From NCBI RefSeq assembly GCF_056746865.1, contig NZ_CM163382.1: DNA of 64,000 nucleotides; one strand, given 5' to 3'. A program made the position numbers and the translations under genes. The notes under the pieces were generated by a model. It did not search any database, was not told the DNA's origin, and saw only the letters and a program-made list of their open reading frames with translations. Shown here piece by piece: positions 2,483-64,000 of the stretch; positions within the stretch are counted from its first letter, which is position 1; the number at the start of each line of letters is the position of its first letter.

Positions 2483-3109
<627 letters not shown>

Positions 3110-6370: not shown

Positions 6371-6375
6371 GTCTG

Positions 6376-8323: not shown

Positions 8324-8353
8324 AACATTCATTCATGATGCATCATGAACCTT

Positions 8354-8391: not shown

Positions 8392-8489
8392 GTTGCATGT
8401 GTGGTCATGATCTCTGTATGAATCTTGACCTTTTGGCACCATGTTTAGCACCACGGTATCGTGGGGCTAAAAAAGCGTGGTGCTAAAAC

Positions 8490-9737: not shown

Positions 9738-9783
9738 TGTGACCAGTCCCATTCGTCAGAATCTGTTTGAACGGGAATGCGAT

Positions 9784-10383: not shown

Positions 10384-10732
10384 GTAATAACACTGCAGAT
10401 CGCACGTGAACACAGTGCCACTTTCCCTATGGAATGTGAAATTAATCGGTAATACCCCTCGAAAGAATGTGAACAGACACTCTCTTGCTTAACTGTTGAA
10501 ACTCTTCGAATTAAAGACAAGGTTCGCCATTTAATTATCTGACAGTTCGCCCCAGCACAACGTTAAAGTGATTTTTGATCAATCACCTACTCTGCTCTGG
10601 CAGAGCCAGAGCCGTTTTACTGACTAAAGCACAAGCTTCCAGCGAATGCACCTTTCCACACACCATAAGTCTTGTGTGATACCAGCACTGACGGTGTATG
10701 TTACATATCCTTAAAAAGTTCTCCAGACCGAC

Positions 10733-11905
10733 TTAGAGAACCTTAGACTGTTCTGGGAACCAGTTATTAATTATATGTCTTCGACAGACTTTAGATATTT
10801 CAAATACCTGTCGTGACACTAATGCACCATCAGGATGGCGCTGGTCAGGTATGTCATTTTCTATGTCATAAAAATTATGCGTTATTTCTGGGGGAAAGAA
10901 AACGTTTTTGTCTAAAGGCACGCTTGCATAGGGATTATAATACACATGCAAACCATCAAAATGAGTTTCCTTGTAGTCCCTTGTTCGGCACATTACAATA
11001 TCCGCGCCAACAACCTCATTGTTGTAGAATTGTCGCTTCGTAGTAACATAATGGTCAGGACCAAGTTTTCTCGTATGAGAACCTTCGTTCTTCATACCTT
11101 CATTGGCAATAAAAACATTCACATCAAGAGCTCGGAATCTCGTATATCGGACATATCGATCGACCCGACTCTGAACGATAGCCTTACCAAAAGTACCTGT
11201 CGTTGAAAACACGATAGCACTGATTTCTTTGTATGAGTCATTTGTAAAAATACCTAAAGGTATTTCAGTGTCTTCATTTTTTTTAATCGATAAAACCCTT
11301 CTTTGCCTACCATTTACTAAATCTCTCATCGTAGGTTCTTCAATGCCAAACAATACCCGGTTAATGATTGTATTATTCTGGGTTAAAGATAGATCTGAAT
11401 CAAATGGGGCCAATGCTAACACAAAAGGCTTACCGATTACATGTTCCATTGTTGAGTATGGGAACTTCTTACCATTAATTCCGGTAAAGAGATCGCGCTT
11501 ATCTTTAATTTTCCCAAGAAGTTTTAGCGTAGATTGATGCTTAAACTTAGCTTCACTGAAAATTTCACTGACTGGCGGTTTATGGGGCTTGTCAGAGACC
11601 ATAGCCTCTACGTTAAATTTATAACCTAATGGCGTGCTAACACAAAAATCAGGACTGTCTTTTGTATAGTCAACCGAATACCCCAAACGAATAAACATCT
11701 CATTTAGATATAATTCCCACATAGAAGAATTAAAGGTAGTCTGAAATTCGTTAATAAATTTAGTTTGTTCACCACTGCGTTCCAGTAATCCGCGTCCCCA
11801 TGATTGGATCACCGCCCTAACAGGAGCAAGTTTAGGATCTGTGTAGATTGTTTTAAAATTGTGATTTAGTTTATTTCTAGCTATTTTTGTTGAGAAGAGA
11901 TCCAT
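10733..11905 (-). CDS. hypothetical protein, unassigned family (paralogue A); candidate defence or abortive-infection protein
   Basis: 390-aa AT-rich ORF. Shares conserved blocks with the 356-aa product of 33796..34866: EFQTTFNSSMWELYL vs EFQTSFEPCLWELYL, DSPDFCV vs DAPDFIV, FVLALAPFD vs FVIAIASFD, ISAIVFSTTGTFGKA vs VSAVIYSSLATWGKV, YNPYASVPL vs HNPFAKYPL. Confidence 0.7.
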   Translation of the reverse strand: MDLFSTKIARNKLNHNFKTIYTDPKLAPVRAVIQSWGRGLLERSGEQTKFINEFQTTFNSSMWELYLNEMFIRLGYSVDYTKDSPDFCVSTPLGYKFNVEAMVSDKPHKPPVSEIFSEAKFKHQSTLKLLGKIKDKRDLFTGINGKKFPYSTMEHVIGKPFVLALAPFDSDLSLTQNNTIINRVLFGIEEPTMRDLVNGRQRRVLSIKKNEDTEIPLGIFTNDSYKEISAIVFSTTGTFGKAIVQSRVDRYVRYTRFRALDVNVFIANEGMKNEGSHTRKLGPDHYVTTKRQFYNNEVVGADIVMCRTRDYKETHFDGLHVYYNPYASVPLDKNVFFPPEITHNFYDIENDIPDQRHPDGALVSRQVFEISKVCRRHIINNWFPEQSKVL

Positions 11906-12356
11906 TATTTACCTCTATAAACACTTTGTAAAACTAAACATGTGTATTTTACTGCGCTGATTGTCGAACATATGCTTCAAATTGTAATGCGGTATTCTAC
12001 ATCAGAAAAACCTCTTTTATATTTTCCTCATTAAATTTATTTACACCGAAAAATAGCCGCATGAATCATGTCTGAACAGATGAACTTCTCTAATATAGCC
12101 TAAATACCTACGACTGCGCTATAAAGAGGGAACCTCAAGCACTAATAGCACAAAGAAAATATGCGAACACAAATTTGACGCGAAACTATGACTTAGATAG
12201 GATGAATCTAGGTGGTGATGGTCACCTGGCGCCTGTCTCGCAAAGCAATAGCCCATCGTTCAGAAGTATACCAAATACTTGGCCGCCATCCATTATGACG
12301 CTGCCCGGTTAGCAGGCTATCGGTATCCAAAGCGTTACTTTATTGGAGGTACAGCC

Positions 12357-12896
12357 ATGTCTGACTATTCATACCTAAGCATTCTTAAAACGTGCGCTAA
12401 AAAGCTGGCTCGCATTCAGAAAATTAAGCTTTCCAAAGCACTCGAAATCGTTGCCCGTGACGCGAAATTCACCAGCTACCATGAGCTGTCCGAAGTCGCA
12501 AAACGTGCCCCGCTAGAACAACGGCTGGTTTTCGCTGCAATAGGCGAAGATACTCAAGAGGATGTGATTTATCGCGATGAGATTTTTTATGCCATAGACC
12601 GCGAGGTGGAAGATATGCTCTCCGGCGACATAGCGGAAACAAACGCCTATGGTTTTAGCATAGAGAATCTGGAGGCAACAAGCATAAATTACGACCCAAA
12701 GCGAGGCATTCTGGTCGTCCAAGTCATATTTGATTATCAGGGTGAACAAGATTCTGAACGCCCTTTCTCTGGTTCGTCCTTTGAAATTGTTGCGAAAATG
12801 GAGCTACTTCTTCGCGACAATGTATGGAGCCTCGTAGAAAATAGTCTGGAATTGACCTCTGTTAATTCAAATGTCGATAATGACTGGTACGATTAA
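12357..12896 (+). CDS. hypothetical protein (start uncertain; ORF opens at 12279)
   Basis: Long ORF in the AT-rich int-alpA interval; no motif recognised. Confidence 0.35.
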   Translation: MSDYSYLSILKTCAKKLARIQKIKLSKALEIVARDAKFTSYHELSEVAKRAPLEQRLVFAAIGEDTQEDVIYRDEIFYAIDREVEDMLSGDIAETNAYGFSIENLEATSINYDPKRGILVVQVIFDYQGEQDSERPFSGSSFEIVAKMELLLRDNVWSLVENSLELTSVNSNVDNDWYD

Positions 12897-13497
12897 GACA
12901 TATAACAGTAGGAGGCATTCCAAATTTTTGGCGGAGTGCCTTTTTAGTAACTATATCCAGATGAAATCATCGAGTTATCACATGAGCATCCATCTTACGT
13001 GTACTCAAAACACTTATGGGCTTCTAAATTCAGGAAGTCCCTACTCCGCTTGCTGGCGCTTCTTTGAGCCTCGTGGCGTCCATATACACCAATTAGGCCA
13101 GACCATGCTCAAACAACTTGTCGAGAAATGCTATGTGCAAAAACCACTGGACATGTTCTCGATGACAGCAGGCAAACTAACTGGGCTTGATCAATCTGGG
13201 CCTAAACTGGCTTCCATCATATGCAGAGGGATAGAGCAGGCCAAAGATGTACAACTCGGAGAGTTACTTTTTGCCTGCGGTATCTATGGTGTGGAAGAAG
13301 AAGAAGCCTGGTTACTAGCTAAAAGATTCAGTAATCTTGAGGCCTTGTATGGTGCCAGCATAGATTCTCTGATGAGTTATAACCTTCTTAATGAGGCAGT
13401 AGCTGTCAATACGTATAACTTCTTCCGTCATCCGCTCAATGTGTCGGCTCTTAACGAGTTACAAACAGAAGGTGGATTGAAGGTGCGCCATGGATAG
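12871..13497 (+). CDS. stand-alone protein homologous to the C-terminal helix-hairpin-helix region of NAD-dependent DNA ligase LigA (start uncertain)
   Basis: Translation ...VHIHQLGQTMLKQLVEKCYVQKPLDMFSMTAGKLTGLDQSGPKLASIICRGIEQAKDVQLGELLFACGIYGV...KRFSNLEALYGASIDSL...NFFRHPLNVSALNELQTEG parallels the LigA HhH region as I remember it (QLVEK.YV..P.DLF.LTAGKLTGL...GPK.A......FGTLEAL..AS.EEL...NFF...N..VI.EL); no adenylation KxDG motif upstream. Confidence 0.55.
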   Translation: MSIMTGTIKTYNSRRHSKFLAECLFSNYIQMKSSSYHMSIHLTCTQNTYGLLNSGSPYSACWRFFEPRGVHIHQLGQTMLKQLVEKCYVQKPLDMFSMTAGKLTGLDQSGPKLASIICRGIEQAKDVQLGELLFACGIYGVEEEEAWLLAKRFSNLEALYGASIDSLMSYNLLNEAVAVNTYNFFRHPLNVSALNELQTEGGLKVRHG

Positions 13498-13680
13498 AAT
13501 TAACACCAAGGCTGTGCCCGGCCTTTTATCTATGCAACGTAGCCGATGACAGTTAACGGTGAGACAGCAACACCTGTTGTAACATGTTTGTACTCGTGCA
13601 TTGCCATCCGTAGGCCTAAACATATCTGACTCCCACAGGATGGGGATAAAATACAACATTTGCATTTTCAATTTGTTATC

Positions 13681-13733
13681 GAAAAATCATTAGTCCTGAT
13701 GGGAAATAATATCTTCCCGGACTAATGATTTTC
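13681..13733. promoter_or_regulatory. long palindrome upstream of alpA (candidate operator, or terminator of the upstream gene)
   Basis: gaaaaatcattagtcc (13681..13696) and ggactaatgattttc (13719..13733) form a 14-bp perfect inverted repeat with inner gggaa/ttccc symmetry, about 100 bp upstream of the alpA start. Confidence 0.4.
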
Positions 13734-13831
13734 TATCCGGACTCCACTTTTTTATCCGGGCCTATACCTCCCCTCATCGTTCCGCGCTATAACCGCTCCG
13801 ACACTCTGTTCCCGTCCCGTGAGGTGCAATC

Positions 13832-14047
13832 ATGAAAACCAGTGCAGACAGTAACGATGCTTTTCCCGAAAGCGGCAACGTGCGTATGCGGCAGGTAGTC
13901 CAGTTTCTGGCGATGAGTGAATCGTCGGTTTACCGCCTGATTAAAAACACCGACTTTCCCCGCCCCGTCCACCTCTCTTCCCGACTGGTGGTCTTCGATG
14001 CTGCTGAAATCCGTCAGTGGCAACAGCGCCGCGCCGCCATCCGTTAA
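13832..14047 (+). CDS. alpA: AlpA-family phage transcriptional regulator (HTH_17)
   Basis: 71 aa; VRMRQVVQFLAMSESSVYRLIKNTDFPRPVHLSSRLVVFDAAEIRQWQQRR is typical AlpA; sits directly upstream of the primase gene. Confidence 0.8.
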   Translation: MKTSADSNDAFPESGNVRMRQVVQFLAMSESSVYRLIKNTDFPRPVHLSSRLVVFDAAEIRQWQQRRAAIR

Positions 14048-49328: not shown

Positions 49329-51581
49329 ATGTTTTCTATAAAACCAGGACCAAGAAATTTACCTATCGACAACCCCACATTGTTATCATGGAACATTACT
49401 GACGGGGATCTAAATTCCAAATTAAATACATTAGAATATCTAAACTGTATAACAAATATTATTAATTCTTGTGGAGTTTATCCTCAGGATTTAAAAGACA
49501 GAGAAATTATATCAACTTTTCACGCAGAAAAAGTTATTAATGATCTGTTAAAAAACAATTATAAAATTTCCCTTTTTCCAGATACAACTTACCGAGAGTT
49601 GAATAAAGCAGCACAGCGTAGCATTACAGCGCCAGACAGGATAGGAGAAGGAAAAACATGGGTTTATCAACGAGATACAATGGTTGAAAGAGGTGATAAC
49701 AGCGGTGTTCATCAGTATGGTCCAGCTGAACATTTTACTCACATTATATCTGACAAACCGTCCCCAAAAGATAAGTATGTTGCATATGCTATTAACATTC
49801 CTGACTATGAACTGGCAGCTGATGTATATAATATTAACGTAACGTCACCTACCGGCCAGCAAGAAACATTTAAAATATTAATCAATCCAGAACATCTACG
49901 GCAAACACTTGAGCGTAAATCTCTTACTGCTGTTCAGAAATCACAATGTGAAATCATCACCCCCAAAAAACCTGGCGAAGCGATTCTTCATGCTTTTAAT
50001 GCCACCTATCAACAAATCAGGAAAAATATATCTGAGTTTGCACGTTGTCATTATGGGTATATACAAATCCCTCCCGTAACCACTTTCCGCGCCGACGGAC
50101 CAGAAACTCCCGAAGAAGAAAAAGGTTACTGGTTTCACGCTTATCAACCCGAAGATCTTTGTACTATCCATAATCCAATGGGAGATTTGCAGGATTTTAT
50201 CGCATTGGTTAAAGATGCCAAAAAATTTGGTATCGATATCATCCCTGATTATACATTTAACTTTATGGGAATCGGGGGTAGTGGTAAAAATGATCTGGAT
50301 TATCCCTCTGCCGATATACGAGCGAAGATCAGTAAAGATATAGAAAGTGGTATCCCTGGCTATTGGCAAGGTCAGGTCTTGATTCCCTTTATTATAGATC
50401 CAGTAACAAAAGAACGTGACCAAATCCATCCAGAAGATATACATCTCACTGCAAAAGACTTCGAAGCAAGTAAAGATAATATTTCTAAGGATGAATGGGA
50501 AAACCTCCATGCATTAAAAGAAAAGCGTTTAAATGGAATGCCTAAAACAACCCCCAAAAGTGACCAGGTTATTATGTTGCAAAATCAATACGTTCGTGAA
50601 ATGCGAAAATATGGCGTACGAGGTTTACGTTATGATGCAGCAAAACACTCAAAACATGAACAAATAGAGAGGTCGATAACCCCACCGCTTAAAAATTATA
50701 ATGAGCGGTTGCACAATACAAATTTATTTAATCCAAAATATCAAAAAAAAGCTGTTATGAATTACATGGAATACCTGGTAACTTGTCCGTTAGATGAACA
50801 ACAAATGTCATCGCTGCTTTATGAAAGAGATGATTTAAGCGCCATTGATTTTTCATTGCTCATGAAGACGATAAAAGCCTTTTCATTCGGTGGAGATCTC
50901 CAAGCCCTTGCATCAAAACCGGGCTCCACAATCTCAAGCATCCCATCAGAAAGACGGATATTGATTAACATCAACCACGATTTCCCTAACAATGGTAATC
51001 TTTTCAATGACTTTTTATTTAACCATCAGCAAGATGAACAATTAGCAATGGCATATATGGCCGCTCTCCCGTTCAGCAGGCCTTTAGTTTACTGGGATGG
51101 TCAGGTATTAAAATCAACGACTGAGATTAAAAATGATGATGGGTCCACTCGTGTCGGCGGTGAAGCGTGGCTTAATAAAGGTTGCTCTACCTATCAGCAG
51201 CTCTACAATGAATTCCACGCATTATATATAGATAAAGAAGGAATATGGAGCGCATTTGAGGGTGTATTTGCAACTAAAAATGTTCTGGCCTTTAGTCGTG
51301 GGGATTCTGTGAACATTAATCACTCTCCTCATGATGGACTAGTTATAATAAATAAAGGAAACGAAGAAGTTGAAGGTACCTGGCCTAACAAATTGCAACC
51401 AGGAATATATAAAAACATGGGGAGTAATAGCGTTACCATTATTAATAATAATACACGCAAAAGTATTCCCCCTGGTAAAGTATTTACGCTTAGAGGTGGA
51501 GCTCTAAATATCAATATTCCTGGGCGCAGCGCTCTTCTTTTAGGGAAAACAGGAGAACCGCCGAACTATTTCTATTTGTAA
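49329..51581 (+). CDS. YgaQ-like protein with alpha-amylase (GH13-type) catalytic-domain features, apparently full-length
   Basis: 750 aa, AT-rich; position after ileY matches ygaQ, which is fragmented in K-12. Confidence 0.6.
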   Translation: MFSIKPGPRNLPIDNPTLLSWNITDGDLNSKLNTLEYLNCITNIINSCGVYPQDLKDREIISTFHAEKVINDLLKNNYKISLFPDTTYRELNKAAQRSITAPDRIGEGKTWVYQRDTMVERGDNSGVHQYGPAEHFTHIISDKPSPKDKYVAYAINIPDYELAADVYNINVTSPTGQQETFKILINPEHLRQTLERKSLTAVQKSQCEIITPKKPGEAILHAFNATYQQIRKNISEFARCHYGYIQIPPVTTFRADGPETPEEEKGYWFHAYQPEDLCTIHNPMGDLQDFIALVKDAKKFGIDIIPDYTFNFMGIGGSGKNDLDYPSADIRAKISKDIESGIPGYWQGQVLIPFIIDPVTKERDQIHPEDIHLTAKDFEASKDNISKDEWENLHALKEKRLNGMPKTTPKSDQVIMLQNQYVREMRKYGVRGLRYDAAKHSKHEQIERSITPPLKNYNERLHNTNLFNPKYQKKAVMNYMEYLVTCPLDEQQMSSLLYERDDLSAIDFSLLMKTIKAFSFGGDLQALASKPGSTISSIPSERRILININHDFPNNGNLFNDFLFNHQQDEQLAMAYMAALPFSRPLVYWDGQVLKSTTEIKNDDGSTRVGGEAWLNKGCSTYQQLYNEFHALYIDKEGIWSAFEGVFATKNVLAFSRGDSVNINHSPHDGLVIINKGNEEVEGTWPNKLQPGIYKNMGSNSVTIINNNTRKSIPPGKVFTLRGGALNINIPGRSALLLGKTGEPPNYFYL

Positions 51582-51592
51582 TTTAATGTTAT

Positions 51593-51618
51593 ATCTGCCC
51601 CGCTAAAACGGGGCAGAT
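51593..51618 (+). terminator. hairpin after the ygaQ-like gene
   Basis: atctgccccgctaaaacggggcagat; weak downstream T-run. Confidence 0.4.
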
Positions 51619-51802
51619 AATATGTTTAGTTTACTAACGGTCATTTTGCAGTGAAGCCATTTACTGTTTTTTATCGACCAGATAATCTGTTCTCTGATGG
51701 TAGCTCCCCCTAACCTGTTGCTTTAGTTATTCATTTCCTGTCTCACTTTGCCTTAATACCCCACATTAAATGTTACTAATTTGTTGTCTTTGATCACAAT
51801 AA

Positions 51803-52894
<1,092 letters not shown>

Positions 52895-52913
52895 GCGCAA
52901 AGGAATTGAGCGG

Positions 52914-54182
52914 ATGTATGATTTTGTGATTATTGGCGGCGGCATCATCGGCATGTCGACCGCCATGCAACTGATTGATGTTTATCCGGATGCCCGCATT
53001 GCGTTGCTGGAAAAAGAGTCCGGCCCGGCCTGTCACCAGACGGGCCACAACAGTGGCGTGATCCATGCCGGGGTCTATTACACGCCCGGTAGCCTGAAGG
53101 CACAGTTTTGCCTGGCGGGAAACCGCGCCACCAAAGCCTTTTGCGATCAAAACGGCATTCGCTATGACAACTGCGGAAAGATGCTGGTCGCCACCTCTGA
53201 ACTCGAAATGGAACGGATGCGCGCGTTGTGGGAACGCACGGCGGCTAACGGGATCGAGCGCGAGTGGTTAAACGCTGAGGAACTGCGAGAGCGCGAACCG
53301 AATATCACCGGGCTCGGCGGTATTTTTGTGCCGTCCAGCGGCATTGTCAGCTACCGCGAAGTGACAGCGGCAATGGCAAAAATCTTCCAGGCCAGAGGCG
53401 GTGAGATTATCTATAACGCCGAAGTCAGCGGCCTTAGTGAGCATAAAAACGGTGTGGTGATACGTACCCGACAAGGCGGCGAATATGAAGCATCGACGCT
53501 GATTAGCTGTTCCGGGCTGATGGCTGACCGGCTGGTGAAAATGCTCGGCCTCGAGCCGGGCTTTATTATCTGCCCGTTCCGCGGCGAGTATTTCCGCCTT
53601 GCGCCGGAGCATAACCAGATTGTTAACCACCTGATTTACCCCATTCCCGACCCCGCGATGCCATTTTTGGGCGTGCATCTCACCCGCATGATCGACGGCA
53701 GCGTGACCGTCGGGCCAAACGCGGTGCTGGCTTTCAAACGCGAAGGCTATCGCAAGCGCGACTTCTCATTTAGCGACACGCTGGAAATTTTGGGCTCGTC
53801 GGGGATTCGCCGGGTGCTGCAAAACCATCTACGCTCAGGACTGGGCGAGATGAAAAACTCGCTGTGCAAAAGCGGCTATCTGCGGCTGGTGCAAAAGTAT
53901 TGTCCCCGGCTTTCGTTAAGCGATCTCCAGCCCTGGCCCGCCGGTGTGCGGGCGCAGGCAGTATCGCCGGACGGCAAGCTGATTGACGATTTTCTGTTTG
54001 TCACCACCCCACGCACGATCCACACCTGCAATGCGCCCTCCCCGGCAGCGACATCAGCAATTCCTATTGGTGCGCATATTGTCAGCAAGGTACAAACGCT
54101 GTTGGCAAGCCAGAGTAACCCCGGACGCACGCTGCGAGCGGCACGTAGTGTGGATGCCTTACACGCCGCATTTAATCAATAA
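52914..54182 (+). CDS. lhgO: L-2-hydroxyglutarate oxidase/dehydrogenase
   Basis: 422 aa from MYDFVIIGGGIIGMSTAMQL (FAD-binding GxGxxG). Confidence 0.9.
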   Translation: MYDFVIIGGGIIGMSTAMQLIDVYPDARIALLEKESGPACHQTGHNSGVIHAGVYYTPGSLKAQFCLAGNRATKAFCDQNGIRYDNCGKMLVATSELEMERMRALWERTAANGIEREWLNAEELREREPNITGLGGIFVPSSGIVSYREVTAAMAKIFQARGGEIIYNAEVSGLSEHKNGVVIRTRQGGEYEASTLISCSGLMADRLVKMLGLEPGFIICPFRGEYFRLAPEHNQIVNHLIYPIPDPAMPFLGVHLTRMIDGSVTVGPNAVLAFKREGYRKRDFSFSDTLEILGSSGIRRVLQNHLRSGLGEMKNSLCKSGYLRLVQKYCPRLSLSDLQPWPAGVRAQAVSPDGKLIDDFLFVTTPRTIHTCNAPSPAATSAIPIGAHIVSKVQTLLASQSNPGRTLRAARSVDALHAAFNQ

Positions 54183-54204
54183 CCTTTGAAAACAGGACGT
54201 AACA

Positions 54205-55653
54205 ATGAAACTTAACGACAGTAACTTATTCCGCCAGCAGGCGTTGATTAACGGGGAATGGCTGGACGCCAACAATGGCGAGGTCATCGACGTCACCAAT
54301 CCGGCGAACGGCGACAAGCTGGGTAGCGTGCCGAAAATGGGCGCTGATGAAACCCGCGCCGCTATCGACGCCGCCAACCGCGCCCTGCCCGCCTGGCGTG
54401 CGCTCACCGCCAAAGAACGCGCCAACATTCTGCGCAACTGGTTCAATTTGATGATGGAGCATCAGGACGATTTAGCGCGCCTGATGACCCTCGAACAGGG
54501 CAAACCACTGGCCGAAGCGAAAGGCGAAATCAGCTACGCTGCCTCTTTTATTGAGTGGTTTGCCGAAGAAGGCAAACGTATTTATGGCGACACCATTCCC
54601 GGTCATCAGGCCGACAAACGCCTGATTGTTATCAAACAGCCGATTGGCGTTACCGCCGCCATCACGCCGTGGAACTTCCCGGCGGCGATGATTACCCGTA
54701 AAGCCGGTCCGGCGCTGGCGGCAGGCTGCACGATGGTGCTGAAACCTGCCAGTCAGACGCCGTTCTCTGCGCTGGCGCTGGCGGAACTGGCGATTCGCGC
54801 AGGCGTTCCGGCTGGCGTATTTAACGTGGTCACCGGTTCGGCGGGCGCGGTCGGTAACGAACTGACCAGCAATCCGCTGGTGCGCAAGCTGTCGTTTACC
54901 GGCTCGACCGAAATTGGTCGCCAGTTAATGGAACAGTGCGCGAAAGATATTAAAAAAGTGTCGCTGGAGCTGGGCGGCAACGCGCCATTTATCGTCTTTG
55001 AGGATGCCGACCTCGACAAAGCCGTGGAAGGCGCGCTGGCCTCGAAATTCCGCAACGCCGGGCAAACCTGCGTCTGCGCCAACCGTTTATACGTGCAGGA
55101 CGGCGTGTATGACCGCTTTGCCGAAAAATTACAGCAGGCGGTGAGCAAACTGCACATCGGCGACGGGCTGGAGAATGGCGTCACCATCGGGCCGCTGATC
55201 GATGAAAAAGCGGTAGCAAAAGTGGAAGAGCATATTGCCGATGCGCTGGAGAGAGGTGCGCGTGTGGTTTGCGGCGGTAAAGCGGATGACCGCGGCGGCA
55301 ACTTCTTCCAGCCGACCATTCTGGTGGACGTTCCGGCCAACGCCAAAGTGTCGAAAGAAGAGACGTTCGGCCCCCTTGCCCCGCTATTCCGCTTTAAAGA
55401 TGAAGCCGATGTGATTGCGCAGGCCAATGACACCGAGTTTGGCCTTGCCGCCTATTTCTACGCCCGTGATTTAAGCCGCGTCTTCCGCGTGGGCGAGGCG
55501 CTGGAGTACGGCATCGTCGGCATTAATACTGGCATTATTTCCAATGAAGTGGCCCCGTTCGGCGGCATTAAAGCCTCGGGTCTGGGTCGTGAAGGTTCGA
55601 AGTATGGCATCGAAGATTACTTAGAAATCAAATATATGTGCATCGGTCTTTAA
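54205..55653 (+). CDS. gabD: succinate-semialdehyde dehydrogenase (NADP+)
   Basis: 482 aa aldehyde dehydrogenase with catalytic Cys region GQTCVCANR and Glu region LELGGNAP. Confidence 0.95.
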   Translation: MKLNDSNLFRQQALINGEWLDANNGEVIDVTNPANGDKLGSVPKMGADETRAAIDAANRALPAWRALTAKERANILRNWFNLMMEHQDDLARLMTLEQGKPLAEAKGEISYAASFIEWFAEEGKRIYGDTIPGHQADKRLIVIKQPIGVTAAITPWNFPAAMITRKAGPALAAGCTMVLKPASQTPFSALALAELAIRAGVPAGVFNVVTGSAGAVGNELTSNPLVRKLSFTGSTEIGRQLMEQCAKDIKKVSLELGGNAPFIVFEDADLDKAVEGALASKFRNAGQTCVCANRLYVQDGVYDRFAEKLQQAVSKLHIGDGLENGVTIGPLIDEKAVAKVEEHIADALERGARVVCGGKADDRGGNFFQPTILVDVPANAKVSKEETFGPLAPLFRFKDEADVIAQANDTEFGLAAYFYARDLSRVFRVGEALEYGIVGINTGIISNEVAPFGGIKASGLGREGSKYGIEDYLEIKYMCIGL

Positions 55654-55666
55654 CTGGAGAACGCGA

Positions 55667-56947
55667 ATGAGCAGCAATAAAGAATTAATGCAGCGCCGCA
55701 GTCAGGCAGTTCCTCGTGGCGTTGGGCAAATTCACCCCATTTTCGCTGATCGCGCGGAAAACTGCCGGGTGTGGGACGTTGAAGGCCGTGAGTATCTTGA
55801 TTTCGCGGGCGGCATTGCAGTGCTCAATACCGGGCACCTGCATCCGAAAGTGGTTGCGGCGGTGGAAGCGCAGTTGAAAAAGCTGTCGCACACCTGCTTC
55901 CAGGTGCTGGCCTACGAGCCGTATCTGGAGCTGTGCGAAATAATGAATCAGAAGGTGCCGGGCGATTTTGCCAAAAAAACGCTGCTGGTAACGACCGGTT
56001 CTGAAGCGGTGGAGAACGCGGTGAAAATCGCCCGCGCCGCCACCAAACGCAGCGGGACCATCGCCTTTAGCGGCGCGTATCACGGGCGCACGCATTACAC
56101 GCTGGCGCTGACCGGCAAGGTGAATCCTTACTCTGCGGGCATGGGCCTGATGCCAGGGCATGTTTATCGCGCACTTTATCCGTGTCCACTGCACGGCATA
56201 AGCGAGGATGACGCTATCGCCAGCATCCACCGGATCTTCAAAAATGACGCCGCGCCGGAAGATATCGCCGCCATCGTGATTGAGCCGGTTCAGGGTGAAG
56301 GCGGTTTCTACGCCGCGACGCCAGCCTTTATGCAGCGTTTACGCGCGTTGTGTGACGAGCACGGGATCATGCTGATTGCCGATGAAGTGCAGAGCGGCGC
56401 GGGGCGTACCGGCACGCTGTTTGCGATGGAGCAGATGGGCGTTGCGCCGGATCTTACCACCTTTGCGAAATCGATCGCAGGCGGCTTCCCGCTGGCGGGC
56501 GTCACCGGGCGCGCGGAAGTGATGGATGCCGTCGCTCCAGGCGGTCTGGGCGGCACCTATGCGGGTAACCCGATTGCCTGCGTGGCTGCGCTGGAAGTGT
56601 TGAAGGTGTTTGAGCAGGAAAATCTGCTGCAAAAAGCCAACGATCTGGGGCAGAAACTGAAAGACGGATTGCTGGCGATAGCCGAAAAACATACTGAGAT
56701 CGGCGACGTACGCGGGCTGGGAGCGATGATTGCCATCGAGCTGTTTGAAGATGGCGATCACAGCAAACCAGACGCAAAACTCACCGCCGAGATCGTGGCG
56801 CGTGCTCGCGATAAGGGCTTGATTCTTCTCTCCTGCGGCCCGTATTACAACGTGCTGCGCATCCTTGTACCGCTCACCATTGAAGACGCTCAGATCCGTC
56901 AGGGTCTGGAGATCATCAGCCAGTGTTTTGCAGAGGCGAAGCAGTAG
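55667..56947 (+). CDS. gabT: 4-aminobutyrate aminotransferase
   Basis: 426 aa class-III PLP aminotransferase. Confidence 0.95.
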   Translation: MSSNKELMQRRSQAVPRGVGQIHPIFADRAENCRVWDVEGREYLDFAGGIAVLNTGHLHPKVVAAVEAQLKKLSHTCFQVLAYEPYLELCEIMNQKVPGDFAKKTLLVTTGSEAVENAVKIARAATKRSGTIAFSGAYHGRTHYTLALTGKVNPYSAGMGLMPGHVYRALYPCPLHGISEDDAIASIHRIFKNDAAPEDIAAIVIEPVQGEGGFYAATPAFMQRLRALCDEHGIMLIADEVQSGAGRTGTLFAMEQMGVAPDLTTFAKSIAGGFPLAGVTGRAEVMDAVAPGGLGGTYAGNPIACVAALEVLKVFEQENLLQKANDLGQKLKDGLLAIAEKHTEIGDVRGLGAMIAIELFEDGDHSKPDAKLTAEIVARARDKGLILLSCGPYYNVLRILVPLTIEDAQIRQGLEIISQCFAEAKQ

Positions 56948-57257
56948 TCATGTCCGTTCGTAAGAGTTAACCGTTGCTAAGGGAATGATAACGATGCAGT
57001 AAAAAATAATAACGATGAGGCGAACGACAAAGTTAAAAACGACTGCGGACAGTCCCCTCGCCCCTCTGGGGAGAGGGTTAGGGTGAGGGGTAAAAAACGC
57101 GACTAACCCCTCCCCCGGCCCTATCCCTGAGGGAGAAGGAGAAAACCATCCCGCTTTCGTTTTTAAGATTTTGTTGACCGTCTCAATTACACGCGTGACC
57201 CGACGCGGGAAATGTCGGGGCGCTCTCCCAAGTGACACACTTTCGAGAGGATTCAGG

Positions 57258-58658
57258 ATGGGGCAATCATCGCAACCACATGAGTTAGGCGGCGGGCTGA
57301 AGTCACGCCACGTCACCATGTTGTCTATTGCCGGTGTTATCGGCGCAAGTCTGTTTGTCGGTTCCAGCGTCGCCATCGCCGAAGCGGGCCCGGCGGTATT
57401 ACTGGCCTATCTGTTCGCCGGATTACTGGTGGTTATGATTATGCGGATGTTGGCGGAAATGGCGGTTGCCACGCCCGACACGGGTTCGTTTTCCACCTAT
57501 GCAGATAAAGCTATTGGTCGTTGGGCGGGCTATACCATCGGCTGGTTGTACTGGTGGTTTTGGGTACTGGTTATCCCGCTGGAAGCCAACATCGCCGCCA
57601 TGATCCTGCACTCGTGGGTTCCAGGCATTCCCATCTGGTTATTTTCCCTCGTCATTACCCTCGCCTTAACTGGCAGTAATTTATTAAGCGTTAAAAACTA
57701 CGGCGAATTTGAGTTCTGGCTGGCGCTGTGCAAAGTCATCGCTATCCTGGCCTTTATTTTCCTTGGTGCAGTCGCAATTAGCGGTTTTTACCCTTATGCC
57801 GAAGTGAGCGGGATCTCAAGATTGTGGGATAGCGGCGGCTTTATGCCCAACGGCTTCGGCGCAGTATTAACCGCGATGTTGATCACCATGTTCTCGTTTA
57901 TGGGCGCAGAAATTGTCACCATTGCCGCCGCGGAATCTGACACGCCGGAAAAACATATTGTCCGCGCCACCAACTCGGTTATCTGGCGTATTTCTATCTT
58001 CTATTTGTGCTCTATTTTTGTCGTCGTGGCATTAATACCGTGGAATATGCCGGGGCTGAAAGCCGTTGGATCTTATCGCTCGGTTCTGGAGTTGCTCAAT
58101 ATTCCCCATGCGAAATTAATCATGGACTGCGTGATATTACTTTCCGTAACCAGTTGCCTGAACTCGGCGCTGTATACCGCTTCCAGAATGCTCTACTCCT
58201 TAAGCCGTCGCGGTGATGCTCCCGCGGTAATGGGTAAAATCAACCGCAGTAAAACCCCGTATGTGGCGGTATTACTCTCGACCGGTGCGGCATTTTTAAC
58301 GGTGGTGGTGAATTATTACGCGCCTGCGAAAGTGTTTAAATTTCTGATCGACAGCTCCGGCGCTATCGCCCTGCTGGTTTATTTAGTCATCGCCGTTTCA
58401 CAATTGCGGATGCGCAAAATTCTGCGAGCAGAAGGAAGCGAAATTCGCCTGCGGATGTGGCTTTATCCGTGGCTCACCTGGCTGGTCATCGGCTTTATTA
58501 CCTTTGTGTTGGTAGTGATGCTATTCCGCCCGGCGCAACAGTTAGAAGTGATCTCCACCGGCTTATTAGCGATAGGGATTATCTGTACCGTGCCAATTAT
58601 GGCTCGCTGGAAAAAGCTGGTATTGTGGCAAAAAACACCCGTTCATAATACGCGCTGA
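57258..58658 (+). CDS. gabP: GABA permease (APC family)
   Basis: 466 aa from MGQSSQPHELGGGLKSRHVTMLSIAG; multi-pass membrane transporter. Confidence 0.9.
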   Translation: MGQSSQPHELGGGLKSRHVTMLSIAGVIGASLFVGSSVAIAEAGPAVLLAYLFAGLLVVMIMRMLAEMAVATPDTGSFSTYADKAIGRWAGYTIGWLYWWFWVLVIPLEANIAAMILHSWVPGIPIWLFSLVITLALTGSNLLSVKNYGEFEFWLALCKVIAILAFIFLGAVAISGFYPYAEVSGISRLWDSGGFMPNGFGAVLTAMLITMFSFMGAEIVTIAAAESDTPEKHIVRATNSVIWRISIFYLCSIFVVVALIPWNMPGLKAVGSYRSVLELLNIPHAKLIMDCVILLSVTSCLNSALYTASRMLYSLSRRGDAPAVMGKINRSKTPYVAVLLSTGAAFLTVVVNYYAPAKVFKFLIDSSGAIALLVYLVIAVSQLRMRKILRAEGSEIRLRMWLYPWLTWLVIGFITFVLVVMLFRPAQQLEVISTGLLAIGIICTVPIMARWKKLVLWQKTPVHNTR

Positions 58659-58678
58659 TAATGATCAGGAGTCACACC

Positions 58679-59341
58679 ATGACCATTACGTCTCTGGATG
58701 GCTATCGCTGGCTGAAGAACGATATTATTCGCGGTAATTTTCAACCGGATGAAAAATTACGGATGAGTTTGCTTACATCGCGTTATGCACTTGGCGTTGG
58801 GCCGTTACGGGAAGCTCTTTCGCAACTGGTGGCGGAACGGCTGGTCACGGTGGTGAATCAAAAAGGGTATCGGGTGGCGTCTATGTCAGAGCAGGAGCTG
58901 CTCGATATTTTCGACGCCCGCGCCAATATGGAAGCGATGCTGGTCAGTCTGGCGATTGCCCGCGGTGGCGATGAATGGGAGGCAGACGTTCTCGCAAAAG
59001 CGCATCTGCTCAGTAAGCTGGAGGCCTGTGACGCCAGTGAGAAAATGCTTGATGAGTGGGATCTGCGTCATCAGGCGTTTCATACGGCAATTGTGGCGGG
59101 CTGTGGTTCTCACTATTTGCTGCAAATGCGTGAACGGTTGTTTGATCTGGCGGCGCGCTATCGATTTATCTGGCTGCGGCGAACAGTGCTTTCGGTGGAG
59201 ATGCTGGAGGATAAACACGATCAGCACCAGACCCTGACAGCGGCGGTACTGGCGCGAGATACCGCGCGCGCCAGTGAGTTAATGCGCCAGCATTTACTGA
59301 CGCCAATTCCCATTATCCAGCAGGCGATGGCTGGCAATTAA
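58679..59341 (+). CDS. csiR: GntR-family transcriptional repressor CsiR
   Basis: 220 aa from MTITSLDGYRWLKNDIIRGNF. Confidence 0.85.
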   Translation: MTITSLDGYRWLKNDIIRGNFQPDEKLRMSLLTSRYALGVGPLREALSQLVAERLVTVVNQKGYRVASMSEQELLDIFDARANMEAMLVSLAIARGGDEWEADVLAKAHLLSKLEACDASEKMLDEWDLRHQAFHTAIVAGCGSHYLLQMRERLFDLAARYRFIWLRRTVLSVEMLEDKHDQHQTLTAAVLARDTARASELMRQHLLTPIPIIQQAMAGN

Positions 59342-59791
59342 CTACTCTTCAGGAATACGCAACACTTGCCCCGGGTAAATTTTATCCGGGCTTTTGAGCA
59401 TCGGTTTATTCGCTTCGAAGATTTTATTGTACAGATTGGCGTTACCGTAGACCTGTTTGGAAATGGCACTCAGAGTGTCGCCAGACTTAACGGTATAAAA
59501 CTGGCTGGCAGCGGCTGGTGTCGCCGTTTTCACCTGATCATCGACACTGGCAATACCGGAAATATTCCCCACCGCAACAAGGATTTTCTCCTTCGCCTCC
59601 TGACTCAGGCCATCACCCGTGACCGTCGCTTTGCCGTCGGCGATTTGAATGTTCACTTTATCGGCATCAGGTATACCGGTTTTGTTCAGATGCTCCTGCA
59701 CCTTCTTCGCCTGATCGTCTTTATCGTGCTGACCTGTAACCGCGTCCCAGAGTTTTTCTCCGGCATCTTTCACAAAATTGAACAGACCCAT
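59342..59791 (-). CDS. ygaU: potassium-binding LysM-domain protein Kbp (YgaU)
   Basis: 149 aa from [19 protein letters not shown]-terminal LysM ([49 protein letters not shown]). Confidence 0.85.
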
Positions 59792-59874
59792 AGCTACCTC
59801 ATTCGTTAACGGAAACACTCAGAAAGTGTAGCAGAGGAACGCGGCGCGTTAACGCCGCGGGGGTGAGGACAGGT

Positions 59875-60033
59875 TTAATCGCGGGTTTGCACCCAGAAAG
59901 CGTGAATCAAACCGGGGATATATCCAAGCAGTGTCAGCAGAATATTAATAATGAACGCCCAACCGAACCCTTTACCGAGCAGCACGCCGAGCGGCGGCAG
60001 AATGATGGTGATGACGATTCTCCAGAAACCCAT
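59875..60033 (-). CDS. yqaE: small membrane protein YqaE (Pmp3/UPF0057 family), 52 aa, below the ORF-track length cutoff
   Basis: Reverse translation MGFWRIVITIILPPLGVLLGKGFGWAFIINILLTLLGYIPGLIHAFWVQTRD. Confidence 0.8.
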   Translation of the reverse strand: MGFWRIVITIILPPLGVLLGKGFGWAFIINILLTLLGYIPGLIHAFWVQTRD

Positions 60034-60215
60034 ATGTACTCCCTATAAGAAAATTACTCATTGTTTAAAAAGAGATTTTATCTCTTAAGCGTAGTAATTT
60101 TAGCGGAGCCTGCCAGTTTCAGCTTACGCTTTTACTCTCATTTACGCTGCTGATGCTGGCATATGTTATATTTTTAGTTTAGAGTTTACTTAATTTAGAA
60201 AATGCTTAAATAACT

Positions 60216-60515
60216 ATGACTGAACTCGCGCAATTACAGGCCAGTGCCGAACAGGCAGCGGCCTTATTGAAAGCAATGAGCCACCCTAAACGGTTGCTGA
60301 TTCTGTGCATGCTTAGCGGTTCCCCCGGCACCAGCGCGGGAGAGCTGACGCGCATTACCGGACTGAGTGCCTCTGCGACATCACAGCATCTCGCTCGTAT
60401 GCGGGACGAAGGGCTTATCGACAGCCAACGGGATGCCCAACGCATTCTATATTCCATTAAAAATGAGGCGGTAAATGCCATTATCGCCACCCTGAAAAAT
60501 GTCTATTGTCCGTAA
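60216..60515 (+). CDS. ygaV: ArsR-family transcriptional regulator
   Basis: 99 aa HTH protein; conserved partner of ygaP. Confidence 0.85.
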   Translation: MTELAQLQASAEQAAALLKAMSHPKRLLILCMLSGSPGTSAGELTRITGLSASATSQHLARMRDEGLIDSQRDAQRILYSIKNEAVNAIIATLKNVYCP

Positions 60516-60524
60516 GGAGTCACT

Positions 60525-61049
60525 ATGGCTTTGACAACCATTTCGCCGCATGATGCACAAGAATTAATCGCACGCGGCGCAAAGTTAATCGATATTCGTG
60601 ACGCTGATGAATATCTTCGTGAACATATTCCTGAAGCAGATCTGGCTCCATTATCCGTGCTGGAACAGTCAGGTCTTCCGGCTAAATTACGTCGCGAGCA
60701 AATTATATTCCACTGCCAGGCAGGTAAACGCACCAGTAATAACGCCGATAAATTAGCAGCGATTGCCGCCCCCGCAGAAATCTTTTTACTCGAAGATGGG
60801 ATTGATGGCTGGAAAAAAGCAGGATTACCAGTAGCGGTAAATAAATCTCAACCCTTGCCGTTAATGCGCCAGGTGCAGATCGCTGCGGGTGGTTTAATAT
60901 TAATCGGCGTTATACTGGGCTATACCGTAAATAGCGGTTTCTTCTTATTAAGCGGCTTTGTTGGTGCCGGGTTACTGTTTGCAGGAATTAGCGGTTTTTG
61001 TGGGATGGCAAGGTTGTTAGATAAGATGCCGTGGAACCAACGAGCTTGA
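60525..61049 (+). CDS. ygaP: membrane-anchored rhodanese (thiosulfate sulfurtransferase)
   Basis: 174 aa; rhodanese active-site Cys region [10 protein letters not shown] and C-terminal transmembrane segments. Confidence 0.85.
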
Positions 61050-61095
61050 GAAGCGACGCCGGACGCGCCATAGCGGCGGCATCCGGCCTCAGTAA

Positions 61096-61500
61096 TTAGA
61101 TCAGGAAATCGTCGAGAGATTTACCTTCTGCCAGCGCCTGAGCGATTGGCTTCGGTGTACGGCCCTGACCGGTCCAGGTTTTAGTTTCACCGTTAACATC
61201 AGTGAATTTATATTTCGCCGGACGCGGCTGGCGTTTTTTACCAGCGCGTGGTGCAGCAGCAGAGCTATTACCCAATAACTCTTCCGGGTTAATTCCGTCA
61301 GCTTTCATCAGCTCCAGCCAGGTGCTAATTTTTTCCTGACGCTCAGCCAGTTCACGCTGCTGCTGTTCTTCTTCTTCACGTCTTTCTTTAGTGACAACCC
61401 TGAATTTTTCGAGCATTTCTTCAAGAACGTCAATGGAGAATTCGCGAGCCATCGCACGGAGAGTGCGAATGTTATTTAAACTTTGTAACATTACGGACAT
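61096..61500 (-). CDS. stpA: H-NS paralogue StpA (DNA-binding protein)
   Basis: 134 aa [36 protein letters not shown]...[16 protein letters not shown]. Confidence 0.9.
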
Positions 61501-62167
61501 AATAAAGAAAACCTTTTAACGCCAAAACAAAAAAGTATTTCGTCGCGTAGTGTAAGCGATCACTTATTATATTTCCACAAAATTTAATCTATTTACAGTC
61601 CTGCACGAGATTATTTCAGCTGTTATTTTCTGAAACTCTCAGAATAATTTCAAGATTATATATTAGCCATTTTGATGAGTAATTTCGGTTATTGGTGAAC
61701 AGAGCGGCGCTCTCTGCTCGCTAATTCCGCAAGCCTGACAAAACCAAAGTGAATAAAAATGCAATTTAACCGAATAAATGAAAACACCCCTCACTGGTGC
61801 TTTCTGCTGTCAATGTACATTTTCTGGCATAAAAAATGCTGAAAATGACCCGGTCACGACATACACCGAATTCTCTACGCTTATAGCGTTACCTCACCCC
61901 CAAACTTTCATTAGTGTAATTAAAGGCAGGATCATATCTAATTGATTCAATTGAAAATAAACCATATCGGCATGTAAAAATCCACAATGTACAAAAAACG
62001 CGCCGTTACGGAATATTTTATCTACAAAAACAGTTTAAATAAAAATTTTTCACTAATTGATTAGTCATAGCCAGCGATATACGCTATGCGAAAATGCAGA
62101 TGGCAATGAGATCCACTGCTTTCATCTCCATTCACATCCCATTACGCTTTTATTAAGGAGCATTAGC

Positions 62168-62617
62168 ATGTTCTCACCGCAGTCACGCTTGCGTCATGCA
62201 GTTGCAGATACGTTCGCGATGGTTGTTTACTGTTCTGTCGTGAACATGTGTATTGAAGTTTTCCTCTCCGGAATGAGCTTCGAACAGTCTTTTTATTCCA
62301 GATTGGTAGCGATTCCGGTGAACATCTTAATTGCATGGCCATACGGTATGTACCGCGATCTGTTTATGCGCGCAGCACGCAAAGTTAGCCCGTCGGGCTG
62401 GATAAAAAATCTGGCGGATATCATGGCTTATGTGACGTTCCAGTCACCGGTGTATGTGGCGATCTTGTTAGTGGTGGGCGCAGACTGGCATCAGATTATG
62501 GCGGCGGTCAGTTCAAACATCGTTGTTTCGATGTTGATGGGGGCGGTTTATGGCTACTTCCTCGATTATTGCCGCCGACTGTTTAAAGTTAGCCGTTACC
62601 AGCAGGTAAAAGCCTGA
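62168..62617 (+). CDS. alaE: L-alanine exporter AlaE
   Basis: 149 aa from [21 protein letters not shown]. Confidence 0.85.
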
Positions 62618-62653
62618 CCCTTCTTTTCGCGACTGGCATCGCCAGTCGCGTCT

Positions 62654-62998
62654 TTAACTGGCTTCGCCAAATAAACCATTCAAATAACGTTCAAGCGCAA
62701 CACGCGAACTAAAGCCATGCGGGATACCGTAATGCTCATGACGTTCACCCGCTAAATAGAGCGGAAATTGTTGATAATGATCGCAAGTTTTAATATCGGA
62801 AGCGGGTTCAGCCAGTGTTGAACTACGTTCTTTTAATGTTGGATGAATCACCAGGGCGGTACGTCCCATTCGCGCTTCGCGATTAACATAGACATAATTT
62901 TCCCCACGGCGGTAACCATAAGCTTTCTGGGTTACCACATCGACAGTAAAACCGACTTTTTCAAGTACGCGCGCCACCTCGTCTGGTCGTAAATACAT
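62654..62998 (-). CDS. ygaC: YgaC (DUF2002) protein
   Basis: 114-aa ORF in the conserved position. Confidence 0.8.
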
Positions 62999-63149
62999 AT
63001 TTGATCCTCGTTATTATCAACCGCGGGCCTACCTTACCTGATTGCGCATTCACAACGCTTTCAGAAAAGTCCATAAAGCCGCGATGAACCTCAGTTAAGA
63101 AAATTATGGTCTACACTGAAAATTACATCGAATTCTAATGGGGGATCAT

Positions 63150-63479
63150 ATGTTTAACCGACCGAACCGCAACGACGTTGATGATGGCGTGCAGGATATC
63201 CAGAATGATGTCAATCAATTAGCTGACAGCCTCGAGTCTGTGTTGAAGTCCTGGGGCAGCGACGCCAAAGGGGAAGCAGAAGCCGCTCGCAGTAAAGCGC
63301 AGGCTCTACTGAAAGAAACCAGGGCGCGAATGCATGGTCGTACTCGCGTCCAGCAAGCCGCACGCGATGCCGTTGGCTGCGCGGATTCTTTTGTTCGTGA
63401 AAGACCCTGGTGTAGCGTGGGTACAGCAGCTGCGGTAGGTATTTTTATCGGCGCACTGTTAAGCATGCGCAAATCGTAG
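63150..63479 (+). CDS. ygaM: ElaB/YgaM-family membrane-anchored ribosome-binding protein
   Basis: 109 aa from MFNRPNRNDVDDGVQDIQNDV; C-terminal transmembrane anchor AAAVGIFIGALL. Confidence 0.85.
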   Translation: MFNRPNRNDVDDGVQDIQNDVNQLADSLESVLKSWGSDAKGEAEAARSKAQALLKETRARMHGRTRVQQAARDAVGCADSFVRERPWCSVGTAAAVGIFIGALLSMRKS

Positions 63480-63509
63480 TGCAAAAATGATAATAAATAC
63501 GCGTCTTTG

Positions 63510-63537
63510 ACCCCGAAGCCTGGCTTCGGGGTTTTTT
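63510..63537. terminator. intrinsic terminator after ygaM (also abuts the convergent minus-strand gene end)
   Basis: accccgaagcctggcttcggggtttttt. Confidence 0.55.
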
Positions 63538-64000
63538 AGCTTAAGGCTTTACGTAATTGTTGTGCTACCTGTCGCGCCATACCTTCGTTAACGATATTAG
63601 TAAACGAGAGCAGTAATCCACCTTCCCCACTTGAACGGATACGCCAGTCGCTAAGTGCCTGCACCGCAAGGCCTGCAGCATTGGCTTTACGCGCATGGGC
63701 AATATCATCGCCTATCATTCTGATCACCATCTGGATACCACCTTTCTGCGGCACAACCTGAAATCCTTGCTGCGTCAACGCTTGCTCAATCCATTGCCGA
63801 CGTTGAGCATAATGCTGACGCATTTTCTTCAGATGCCGCCAGAAATGCCCCTCGCGAAGAAAGTCTGCCAGTGTGTTCTGCCATAGAACAGGTACCGCAC
63901 ATGGAGCCAGTGACGCCTGGTGGCGGAATTGTGCAATTTGCTTCACCGGCAACACCAGCCACGCACAGCGCAATGCAGGAAATAGCGCTTTGCTGAATGT
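63536..64000 (-). CDS. C-terminal fragment of a PLP-dependent aminotransferase-fold protein (MocR/GntR-like C-terminal domain); gene continues beyond window end
   Basis: Translation ...LAPCAVPVLWQNTLADFLREGHFWRHLKKMRQHYAQRRQWIEQALTQQGFQV... resembles the C-terminal region of MocR-type regulators; tentative. Confidence 0.35.
   Translation of the reverse strand, partial: TFSKALFPALRCAWLVLPVKQIAQFRHQASLAPCAVPVLWQNTLADFLREGHFWRHLKKMRQHYAQRRQWIEQALTQQGFQVVPQKGGIQMVIRMIGDDIAHARKANAAGLAVQALSDWRIRSSGEGGLLLSFTNIVNEGMARQVAQQLRKALS

Follow-up and report, generated by a model that had tools for sequence, protein, structure and literature searches.

At the right-hand end of the window, as we call the whole 64,000-nucleotide stretch of DNA analysed here, a minus-strand reading frame follows ygaM and runs off the edge at the place where E. 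coli K-12 carries nrdH, which raises the question of what this gene is and how it came to lie there. A preliminary description had regarded the frame as the C-terminal, aminotransferase-like domain of a MocR/GntR regulator, had given the K-12 order as ygaM followed by nrdH on the plus strand, and had offered either a strain-specific insertion or a different lineage gene order as the cause. Our analysis indicated that the frame very probably belongs to an intact chromosomal MocR/GabR-type regulator, which constitutes one half of an ancestral Enterobacteriaceae two-gene divergon between ygaM and nrdH and has been lost in K-12.

The genes ygaC, alaE, stpA, ygaP, and ygaV lie further upstream in the window in the usual E. 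coli order, and its right-hand end holds the following features.

63150..63479, plus strand: ygaM (DUF883, ElaB/YgaM/YqjD family), the conserved left neighbour that fixes the locus (L001 12151-12480 in the extension record described below)
63509..63533, plus strand: intrinsic-terminator hairpin of ygaM, GACCCCGAAGCCTGGCTTCGGGGTT followed by a T-run, found by a terminator scan (L001 12510-12534)
63536..63538, no strand: left breakpoint of the ~1.88-kb deletion in K-12-type E. coli; the homology of genomes without the module ends at 63537
63536..64000, minus strand: 3' end of mocR, codons 291-444 of 444 plus the stop codon, based on the ORF list, Pfam, and identity to WP_001138431.1 in E. coli 118UI
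63989..63991, minus strand: codon AAA of Lys294, which is predicted to form the Schiff base with PLP and lies within T-F-S-K-A-L, based on alignment to 7pq9 and 4n0b

On the minus strand, an uninterrupted frame of 154 codons extends from the window edge to a stop codon at 63536-63538. The ORF list shows a shorter, TTG-started ORF of 145 aa; this is an effect of the edge cutting the true ORF, as the listed one begins at the first start codon available within the window. On its own, the fragment, which begins with the residues T-F-S-K-A-L-F-P-A-L-R, matched the Pfam model Aminotran_1_2 (PF00155) with an E-value of 3.1e-6 and 27.1 bits (cut-off 19.7) over profile positions 216-313 of 361. It covers the C-terminal portion of the PLP domain, which has the aminotransferase fold, and the other 870 coding bases lie beyond the edge. 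The ygaM terminator is placed between the convergent ygaM and mocR, with the stop codon of mocR falling within its T-tract.

A megablast search with window positions 63000-64000 against 5426 complete E. coli genomes yielded a 100% match in strain 118UI, and window positions 51000-64000 were identical to the record of this strain (L001, positions 1-13001) at 13000 of 13001 bases. This record was used as the extension, and everything upstream of the window part of mocR was read from it. In 118UI, mocR is an intact annotated CDS (WP_001138431.1, 444 aa, L001 12537-13871, minus strand), which is named 'PLP-dependent aminotransferase family protein' in older RefSeq records and pdxR in newer PGAP records. 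A 143-aa CDS annotated as 'carboxymuconolactone decarboxylase family' (WP_000209797.1, referred to here as cmd) lies divergently to it on the plus strand, 87 bp apart and outside the window, and is followed by nrdH, nrdI, nrdE, nrdF, and proVWX. The conserved neighbour sought by extending the window was accordingly nrdH, found two genes further on.

In the full-length protein, residues 4-66 matched the GntR winged helix (PF00392, E = 1.4e-17) and residues 126-386 the Aminotran_1_2 domain (PF00155, E = 4e-25). It aligned over its full length with B. clausii PdxR (7pq9; residues 2-436, E = 4.7e-62) as well as with B. subtilis GabR (4n0b; E = 1.6e-54), so that the initial assignment of the edge-running frame to a MocR/GntR aminotransferase fold was borne out. 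K294 falls opposite the lysine of the FSKSL motif in 7pq9 and 4n0b, and the IIEDDYDSEFRY motif is kept (DDYDSEFRY). Among the NCBIfam models, the best was the PdxR equivalog NF052282 (406.7 bits, cut-off 320); the rhizopine MocR model (352 versus 650 bits) and the GabR model (263 versus 600 bits) stayed below their cut-offs. As all the sequence-level characters of the MocR/GabR subfamily are present in the 444-aa protein, it is, as far as sequence can tell, a member of this subfamily.

GabR itself is a head-to-tail dimer formed by PLP domains with a GntR winged helix-turn-helix, and it shares the PLP lysine and the DDYDSEF motif with the mocR product. In work by Belitsky (2004), the operator of GabR reportedly overlaps both the -35 region of its target and its own promoter, giving autorepression and ligand-dependent activation. 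The two systems differ in that the GabR targets gabT and gabD are absent here, and in that Arg430 of GabR, which binds the carboxylate of GABA, aligns with an Asp in the present protein; a guess at the effector based on this exchange was judged too weak to name one.

Judged from its sequence, the partner is a single-domain AhpD-like thiol protein of the CMD family (COG2128 type). Its 143 residues matched Pfam CMD (PF02627, E = 3.5e-21) and the NCBIfam model ahpD_dom (TIGR00778, 54.9 bits, cut-off 27.8), and they include the motif G-C-A-F-C-L-E-M-H, that is, CxxCxxxH. With P. aeruginosa PA0269 (2o4d/2ijc), its closest characterised relative, it shares 41% identity; PA0269 is likewise a single AhpD-like domain of ~145 aa that has CxxCxxxH and a Glu relay and is paired with a MocR regulator (PA0268). 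The residues E37, C49, C52, and H56 align with E36, C48, C51, and H55 of PA0269, so that four of the five proton-relay residues are kept, whereas Tyr50 of PA0269 is replaced by Phe51. PA0269 has been reported to show weak cysteine-dependent peroxidase activity in the reduction of H2O2 (PMC3141380).

The wider distribution of the pair was followed in a one-genome-per-species scan, which gave at least 79 loci with close relatives of the regulator, and then by tblastn of the flanking E. coli proteins. In most of these loci, a CMD gene was located no more than ~4 kb from the regulator. Among the matches listed, the pair lies between ygaM/ygaC/alaE and nrdH/nrdI in more than 20 loci from about ten genera, and it is placed and oriented alike in E. 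albertii, three Citrobacter, Pseudocitrobacter, Cedecea, Pseudescherichia vulneris, Shimwellia, Pluralibacter, and Rahnella, and also in several Enterobacter-labelled genomes. In Kluyvera, the ygaM/ygaC/alaE flank was present, and nrdH/nrdI were not detected by tblastn. Along this series, the identity of the regulator drops from 90% to 47%, in step with that of the flanking genes. The matches listed contain no Salmonella, Klebsiella, or Serratia locus, and synteny in these genera rests on the literature.

When the intergenic regions of the related loci were stacked, three predicted boxes with fixed spacing emerged.

Box 1, ATGGTCT(GC), L001 13872, offset 0: direct, abutting the mocR start codon
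Box 2, ATGGCTC, L001 13896, offset +24: direct
Box 3, (GC)AGTCCAT, L001 13911, offset +39: inverted copy of box 1

The 0/+24/+39 spacing was invariant in 23 of 23 enterobacterial loci among the matches listed, whose 90% consensus reads ATGGTCTG.TTTTT.....A...TATGGCT.TC.....CAG.CCAT.ATAGTG.TA. with dots for variable positions. The 0/+39 pair, together with a TGG-core box at +24, was also conserved in 12 distant loci among the matches listed, which include Pseudomonas, Burkholderia, Herminiimonas, Bradyrhizobium, Sphingomonas, a Rhodospirillaceae MAG, and a Moraxellaceae MAG as well as Hafnia, Budvicia, and Rahnella; by our own estimate, such a pair would arise by chance at ~2e-4 per 240-bp region and locus. 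Directly after box 3 stands a conserved TATAGT (L001 13918-13923), and with a 17-bp spacer the -35 element of a putative cmd promoter would lie on box 2. On the opposite strand, an overlapping TATAAT (13921 to 13916) could serve mocR, in which case boxes 2 and 1 would lie in its leader. Both promoters were placed by eye from the conserved TATAGT/TATAAT; a scan of L001 12400-14650 for consensus sigma-70 promoters found none in the mocR-cmd intergenic region, as was expected because the -35 elements are weak, and of the signals here it was only the ygaM terminator that was confirmed.

The layout of this putative operator matches that described for characterised MocR regulators, in which direct and inverted repeats are mixed, the operator covers both the -35 region of the target and the promoter of the autorepressed regulator gene, and PdxR switches between direct and inverted repeats in a PLP- or ligand-dependent manner (PMC5320631).

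The name pdxR in the newer PGAP records invites the reading that the gene is a true PdxR, regulating the synthesis or salvage genes of vitamin B6 (PLP) with PLP itself as its ligand. In addition to the NF052282 score above the cut-off, B. clausii PdxR is the best solved relative and shares the two-domain architecture, and PdxR regulators, too, form a divergon with direct and inverted repeats in the operator, a layout that the two direct boxes and the one inverted box resemble (PMC5320631). We nevertheless consider this reading improbable. PdxR is defined by the control of pdxST or salvage genes, whereas the partner here is AhpD-like and PLP genes are not found nearby. PLP synthesis in E. coli proceeds by the PdxA/PdxJ route, and the species is not known to carry pdxST. 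In the local context, E. coli and more than 20 related enterobacterial loci have ygaM, the AhpD-like CMD gene, and nrdH as neighbours, with no gene of the pdxS/T, pdxK, or pdxH type adjoining in any enterobacterial locus among the matches listed; the conserved divergent partner and operator belong to the AhpD-like gene, and K-12 is without the regulator altogether. Furthermore, GabR followed PdxR by a small margin in the PDB search (1.6e-54 versus 4.7e-62), and the modest excess over the NF052282 cut-off points to family resemblance rather than to demonstrated orthology. The RefSeq name pdxR thus derives from an HMM score and conflicts with the gene context.

A closer counterpart was identified in the comparative reconstruction of Suvorova and Rodionov (2016), which lists the apparent orthologues under a regulog of their own, 'Spro_3719 - Enterobacteriales', outside PdxR, PdxW, and PdxQ, with COG2128/PF02627 as its target (PMC5320631 supplement). 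Its members are STM2803, CKO_04020, a gene of Klebsiella pneumoniae MGH 78578, Ent638_0497, ECA2654, and Spro_3719 (PMC5320631). The E. coli copy is missing from this list because K-12, which lacks the gene, was the only E. coli in the genome set (PMC5320631). As in the regulog, where the COG2128 AhpD-family gene is the divergent predicted target, the mocR gene of the window stands beside a COG2128/PF02627 AhpD-family gene, with a conserved predicted operator. From gene position and the literature, the gene appears to be orthologous to STM2803/Spro_3719; the support is indirect and comes from the distance between STM2804 and stpA and from the shared locus in the Citrobacter and Enterobacter relatives. 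The protein is best grouped with the Spro_3719 type of MocR regulator, and its mechanism may be PdxR- or GabR-like. PA0268, the regulator of PA0269, represents another MocR group with a COG2128 target and belongs to an orthologous group separate from Spro_3719.

Within the species, the mocR-cmd pair was detected in 1387 of the 5426 complete E. coli genomes, always single-copy and chromosomal. The remaining 74% (~4000 genomes) lack the pair, and ~111 further genomes have a 5'-truncated mocR pseudogene beside an intact cmd. These counts indicate that mocR is dispensable, and the persistence of cmd beside a truncated mocR suggests that cmd may not depend strictly on the regulator. Such losses, along with the choice of STM2804 as a neutral site for insertions in competition experiments in mice (PMC3723669), could be taken to mean that the locus is a decaying, functionally irrelevant remnant and that the regulator is inactive in this strain, but the evidence from the surviving copies makes this still less probable than the identity with PdxR. 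Across the B2-type and O157-type alleles, E. albertii, and L021, a divergent genome labelled 'E. coli', the Nei-Gojobori dN/dS was 0.08-0.11 for mocR in four pairwise comparisons and 0.03-0.07 for cmd; on account of these low ratios, both genes are under purifying selection. The ORF is intact in this lineage, and the pair has been kept across many genera. The B2-type and O157-type alleles have diverged by 11% in mocR, and despite this the intergenic operator is 100% identical between them.

The K-12 order given there was seen in K-12 itself (O16:H48 strain PG20180058), where ygaM is followed directly by nrdH on the plus strand, and the comparison with 118UI revealed that the two arrangements differ by a two-gene segment of ~1.88 kb. 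In 14 of 14 module-less genomes, sampled evenly down the match ranking of the ~4000, the homology ends at query position 538, which corresponds to window position 63537; the right breakpoint lies at about L001 14405-14424, beyond the window. At the K-12 junction, a stretch of 18-19 bp, ctttttgcctggtgaatc, resembles the hairpin region situated just 3' of cmd in the carriers, gccgggtattcacccggc, and this putative remnant in the K-12 lineage has the look of a degenerate, cmd-terminator-like sequence. One match of a third apparent locus type (H20, strain P276M; shorter, 91.6%) was rejected as an artefact of a frameshift-ridden assembly.

A strain-specific, horizontally acquired small island between ygaM and nrdH would also account for the absence of the pair from K-12 and most other complete E. 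coli genomes, and the unusual divergence of the B2-type and O157-type mocR alleles (89% nucleotide identity, with a dS of 0.41 versus 0.02-0.09 in the neighbouring genes) could reflect an import by recombination. We assign this explanation only a very slight probability, as it was already largely refuted, and basal Escherichia and close outgroups do not all lack the pair at this locus. The slot and orientation are shared by many genera with identities that track those of the flanking genes, the GC content of the pair (51.8%) equals that of the flanks (51.2-51.9%), and at the E. coli locus no integrase, IS element, tRNA, or flanking direct repeat adjoins the pair; the terminator-like sequence at the K-12 junction likewise speaks against an insertion. 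In Salmonella LT2, COG2128 is the listed target of the MocR regulator STM2803 (PMC5320631 supplement), and STM2804, described as having 'no known function', lies ~5 kb from stpA (PMC3723669), a position consistent with the Salmonella pair occupying the ygaM-nrdH slot. Since the pair is syntenic across genera, has the GC content of its flanks, and is not accompanied by mobility genes, the K-12 arrangement is read as a deletion, and a single ancient loss of ~1.88 kb in the lineage including K-12 is the simplest reading. Of the two causes offered in the preliminary description, the strain-specific insertion was thus abandoned, and the different lineage gene order proved to be the better alternative in the form of a K-12-type deletion.

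Finally, the idea of a free-standing aminotransferase enzyme, suggested by the older RefSeq name and by the Aminotran_1_2 domain with its catalytic lysine and DDYD aspartate, is hardly credible given the intact N-terminal GntR winged helix-turn-helix, the colinearity of the full length with MocR regulators rather than with enzymes, and the conserved repeat operator in the gene's own upstream region.

For the MocR-type regulator preferred here, a mode of action can be proposed from its solved relatives and the putative operator. In the protein, a GntR winged helix is joined by a linker of ~30 aa to a fold-type-I aminotransferase-like domain predicted to carry PLP on Lys294, and dimerization would be head-to-tail via the PLP domains. 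The two winged helices would then bind the three-box operator in the shared intergenic region, through which the regulator would control the AhpD-like gene and probably repress its own. A switch between direct-repeat and inverted-repeat binding might be set by the occupant of the PLP site. Going further, the MocR regulator and its AhpD-like partner could form a conserved sensor-effector pair, in which a reactive amine, carbonyl, or oxidant, or a B6 signal, turns on a thiol-dependent detoxifying protein; we offer this as a speculative and rather doubtful extension. If it holds, the absence from K-12 would explain why the pair has never been characterised in E. coli, and the deep B2-type/O157-type split in the sensor gene could reflect diversifying ligand specificity or introgression.

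Much of this locus was already on record, in that the gene is annotated in more than 1000 RefSeq genomes, its apparent orthologues and their predicted target were catalogued in 2016, and a crystal structure is available for the closest relative of the partner. A full-text search for MocR together with carboxymuconolactone decarboxylase returned nothing, and the link came via COG2128 in the supplement of PMC5320631; a literature search by locus tag retrieved no functional study, with STM2804 appearing solely as the neutral marker site (PMC3723669), and for the 53 predicted MocR and COG2128 regulons the literature search found no experimental study. The present analysis adds that the difference from K-12 is a loss whose left junction falls exactly on the stop codon of mocR, as well as an explicit three-box predicted operator of invariant geometry across Proteobacteria and a caution on the PdxR label. 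The K-12 order of ygaM followed by nrdH is accordingly the derived state, and B2-type and O157-type E. coli keep the ancestral regulator/redox pair. A K-12-centred view misses a third MocR-type regulator that roughly one in four complete E. coli genomes contain. Beyond the annotation, the significance is slight; the conserved boxes do provide a testable candidate binding site toward the ligand of the MocR and COG2128 regulons.

With its occurrence in those 53 MocR regulons, COG2128/PF02627 is the most frequent entry of the redox-gene table (PMC5320631). The targets of PFL_2191, a Pseudomonas member of the Spro_3719 group, comprise COG2128, COG1182 (AcpD), and PF00583 (GNAT) (PMC5320631). In good agreement with this target set, several Pseudomonas loci contain GNAT acetyltransferase-like and FMN-azoreductase-like (AcpD/AzoR) ORFs between the MocR and CMD genes.

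The 3' end of ygaM and the regulator gene mocR were revealed to be unusually divergent between B2-type and O157-type alleles when positions 12300-13900 of the E. coli 118UI locus (L001), corresponding to about 63300-64000 of the window plus sequence past the window edge, were compared with the O157:H7 locus L003. The nucleotide identity of mocR between the two types was 89.2% with a dS of 0.41, and ygaM gave a dS of 0.31; for the neighbouring alaE, cmd and nrdH genes, dS was only 0.02-0.09, and the mocR-cmd intergenic operator was 100% identical. Furthermore, the O157 allele was nearer to that of L021, a divergent genome labelled as E. coli (91.8%), than to the B2 allele. At the sequence level, this pattern suggests either an old allelic split or import by recombination.

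A recurrent mocR variant (about 111 genomes), which has lost its 5' end together with the winged helix and is annotated as a pseudogene, falls in the B2-type class with 99.1-99.5% identity. The divergent cmd gene, encoding an AhpD-like protein, is intact alongside it. From sequence comparison, this B2-type variant resembles a naturally occurring knockout of the regulator. The example of this variant and the other regions compared are as follows.

Regions compared in the loci
L083 1501-2256: 5'-truncated mocR, E. coli AF22
L003 3481-3629: O157-type extra-base region, O157:H7 F8952, matching the gap between window positions 63479 and 63536
L002 6540-6625 versus L001 14424-14500: nrdH upstream comparison, past the window edge
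About 2800-3900 in each of L023, L024, L026, L030, L031 and L043: GNAT-like and AcpD/AzoR-like ORFs, Pseudomonas
L001 22429-23775: IS4 transposase gene, strain 118UI, past the window edge

In O157-type genomes, approximately 95 additional bases lie between the ygaM stop codon and the terminator hairpin. This extra sequence, in which a REP-like motif (...AACGCCTTGTCCGCCTACAGGCC...) was recognized by eye, is found neither in the window nor in K-12, E. albertii or L021.

The annotated mocR ATG in Escherichia directly adjoins box 1 of the operator (L001 13869-13880, past the window edge). The real start codon and leader of mocR may be different from the annotation: no obvious Shine-Dalgarno sequence precedes the annotated Escherichia ATG (AAAAAAGCAGACCAT-ATG), and in other genera the mocR homology starts 14-60 bp farther from box 1.

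At the deletion junction, approximately 50 bp directly to the right in K-12-type nrdH upstream sequences have diverged strongly from every Escherichia sequence that carries the module, and thus the promoter-distal region of nrdHIEF is unlike between the two haplotypes. The upstream region showed ~84% identity across 174 aligned bases, and nrdH itself 98-100%.

Between the MocR and CMD genes, the loci of the Pseudomonas relatives contain two ORFs, one GNAT-like (~148 aa) and the other AcpD/AzoR-like (~206 aa). The resulting three-gene divergent operon matches the regulon catalogued for PFL_2191 (COG2128, AcpD and PF00583).

On the downstream side of the proVWX operon in 118UI, the IS4 transposase gene separates proX from a gene for an MFS transporter. 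In E. coli P276M (L084, NZ_CP044293.1), stpA, alaE, ygaM, nrdH, nrdI and nrdE are frameshifted or partial within 5 kb, and in this "complete" RefSeq genome such defects seem to come from an assembly with many errors and not to be biological.
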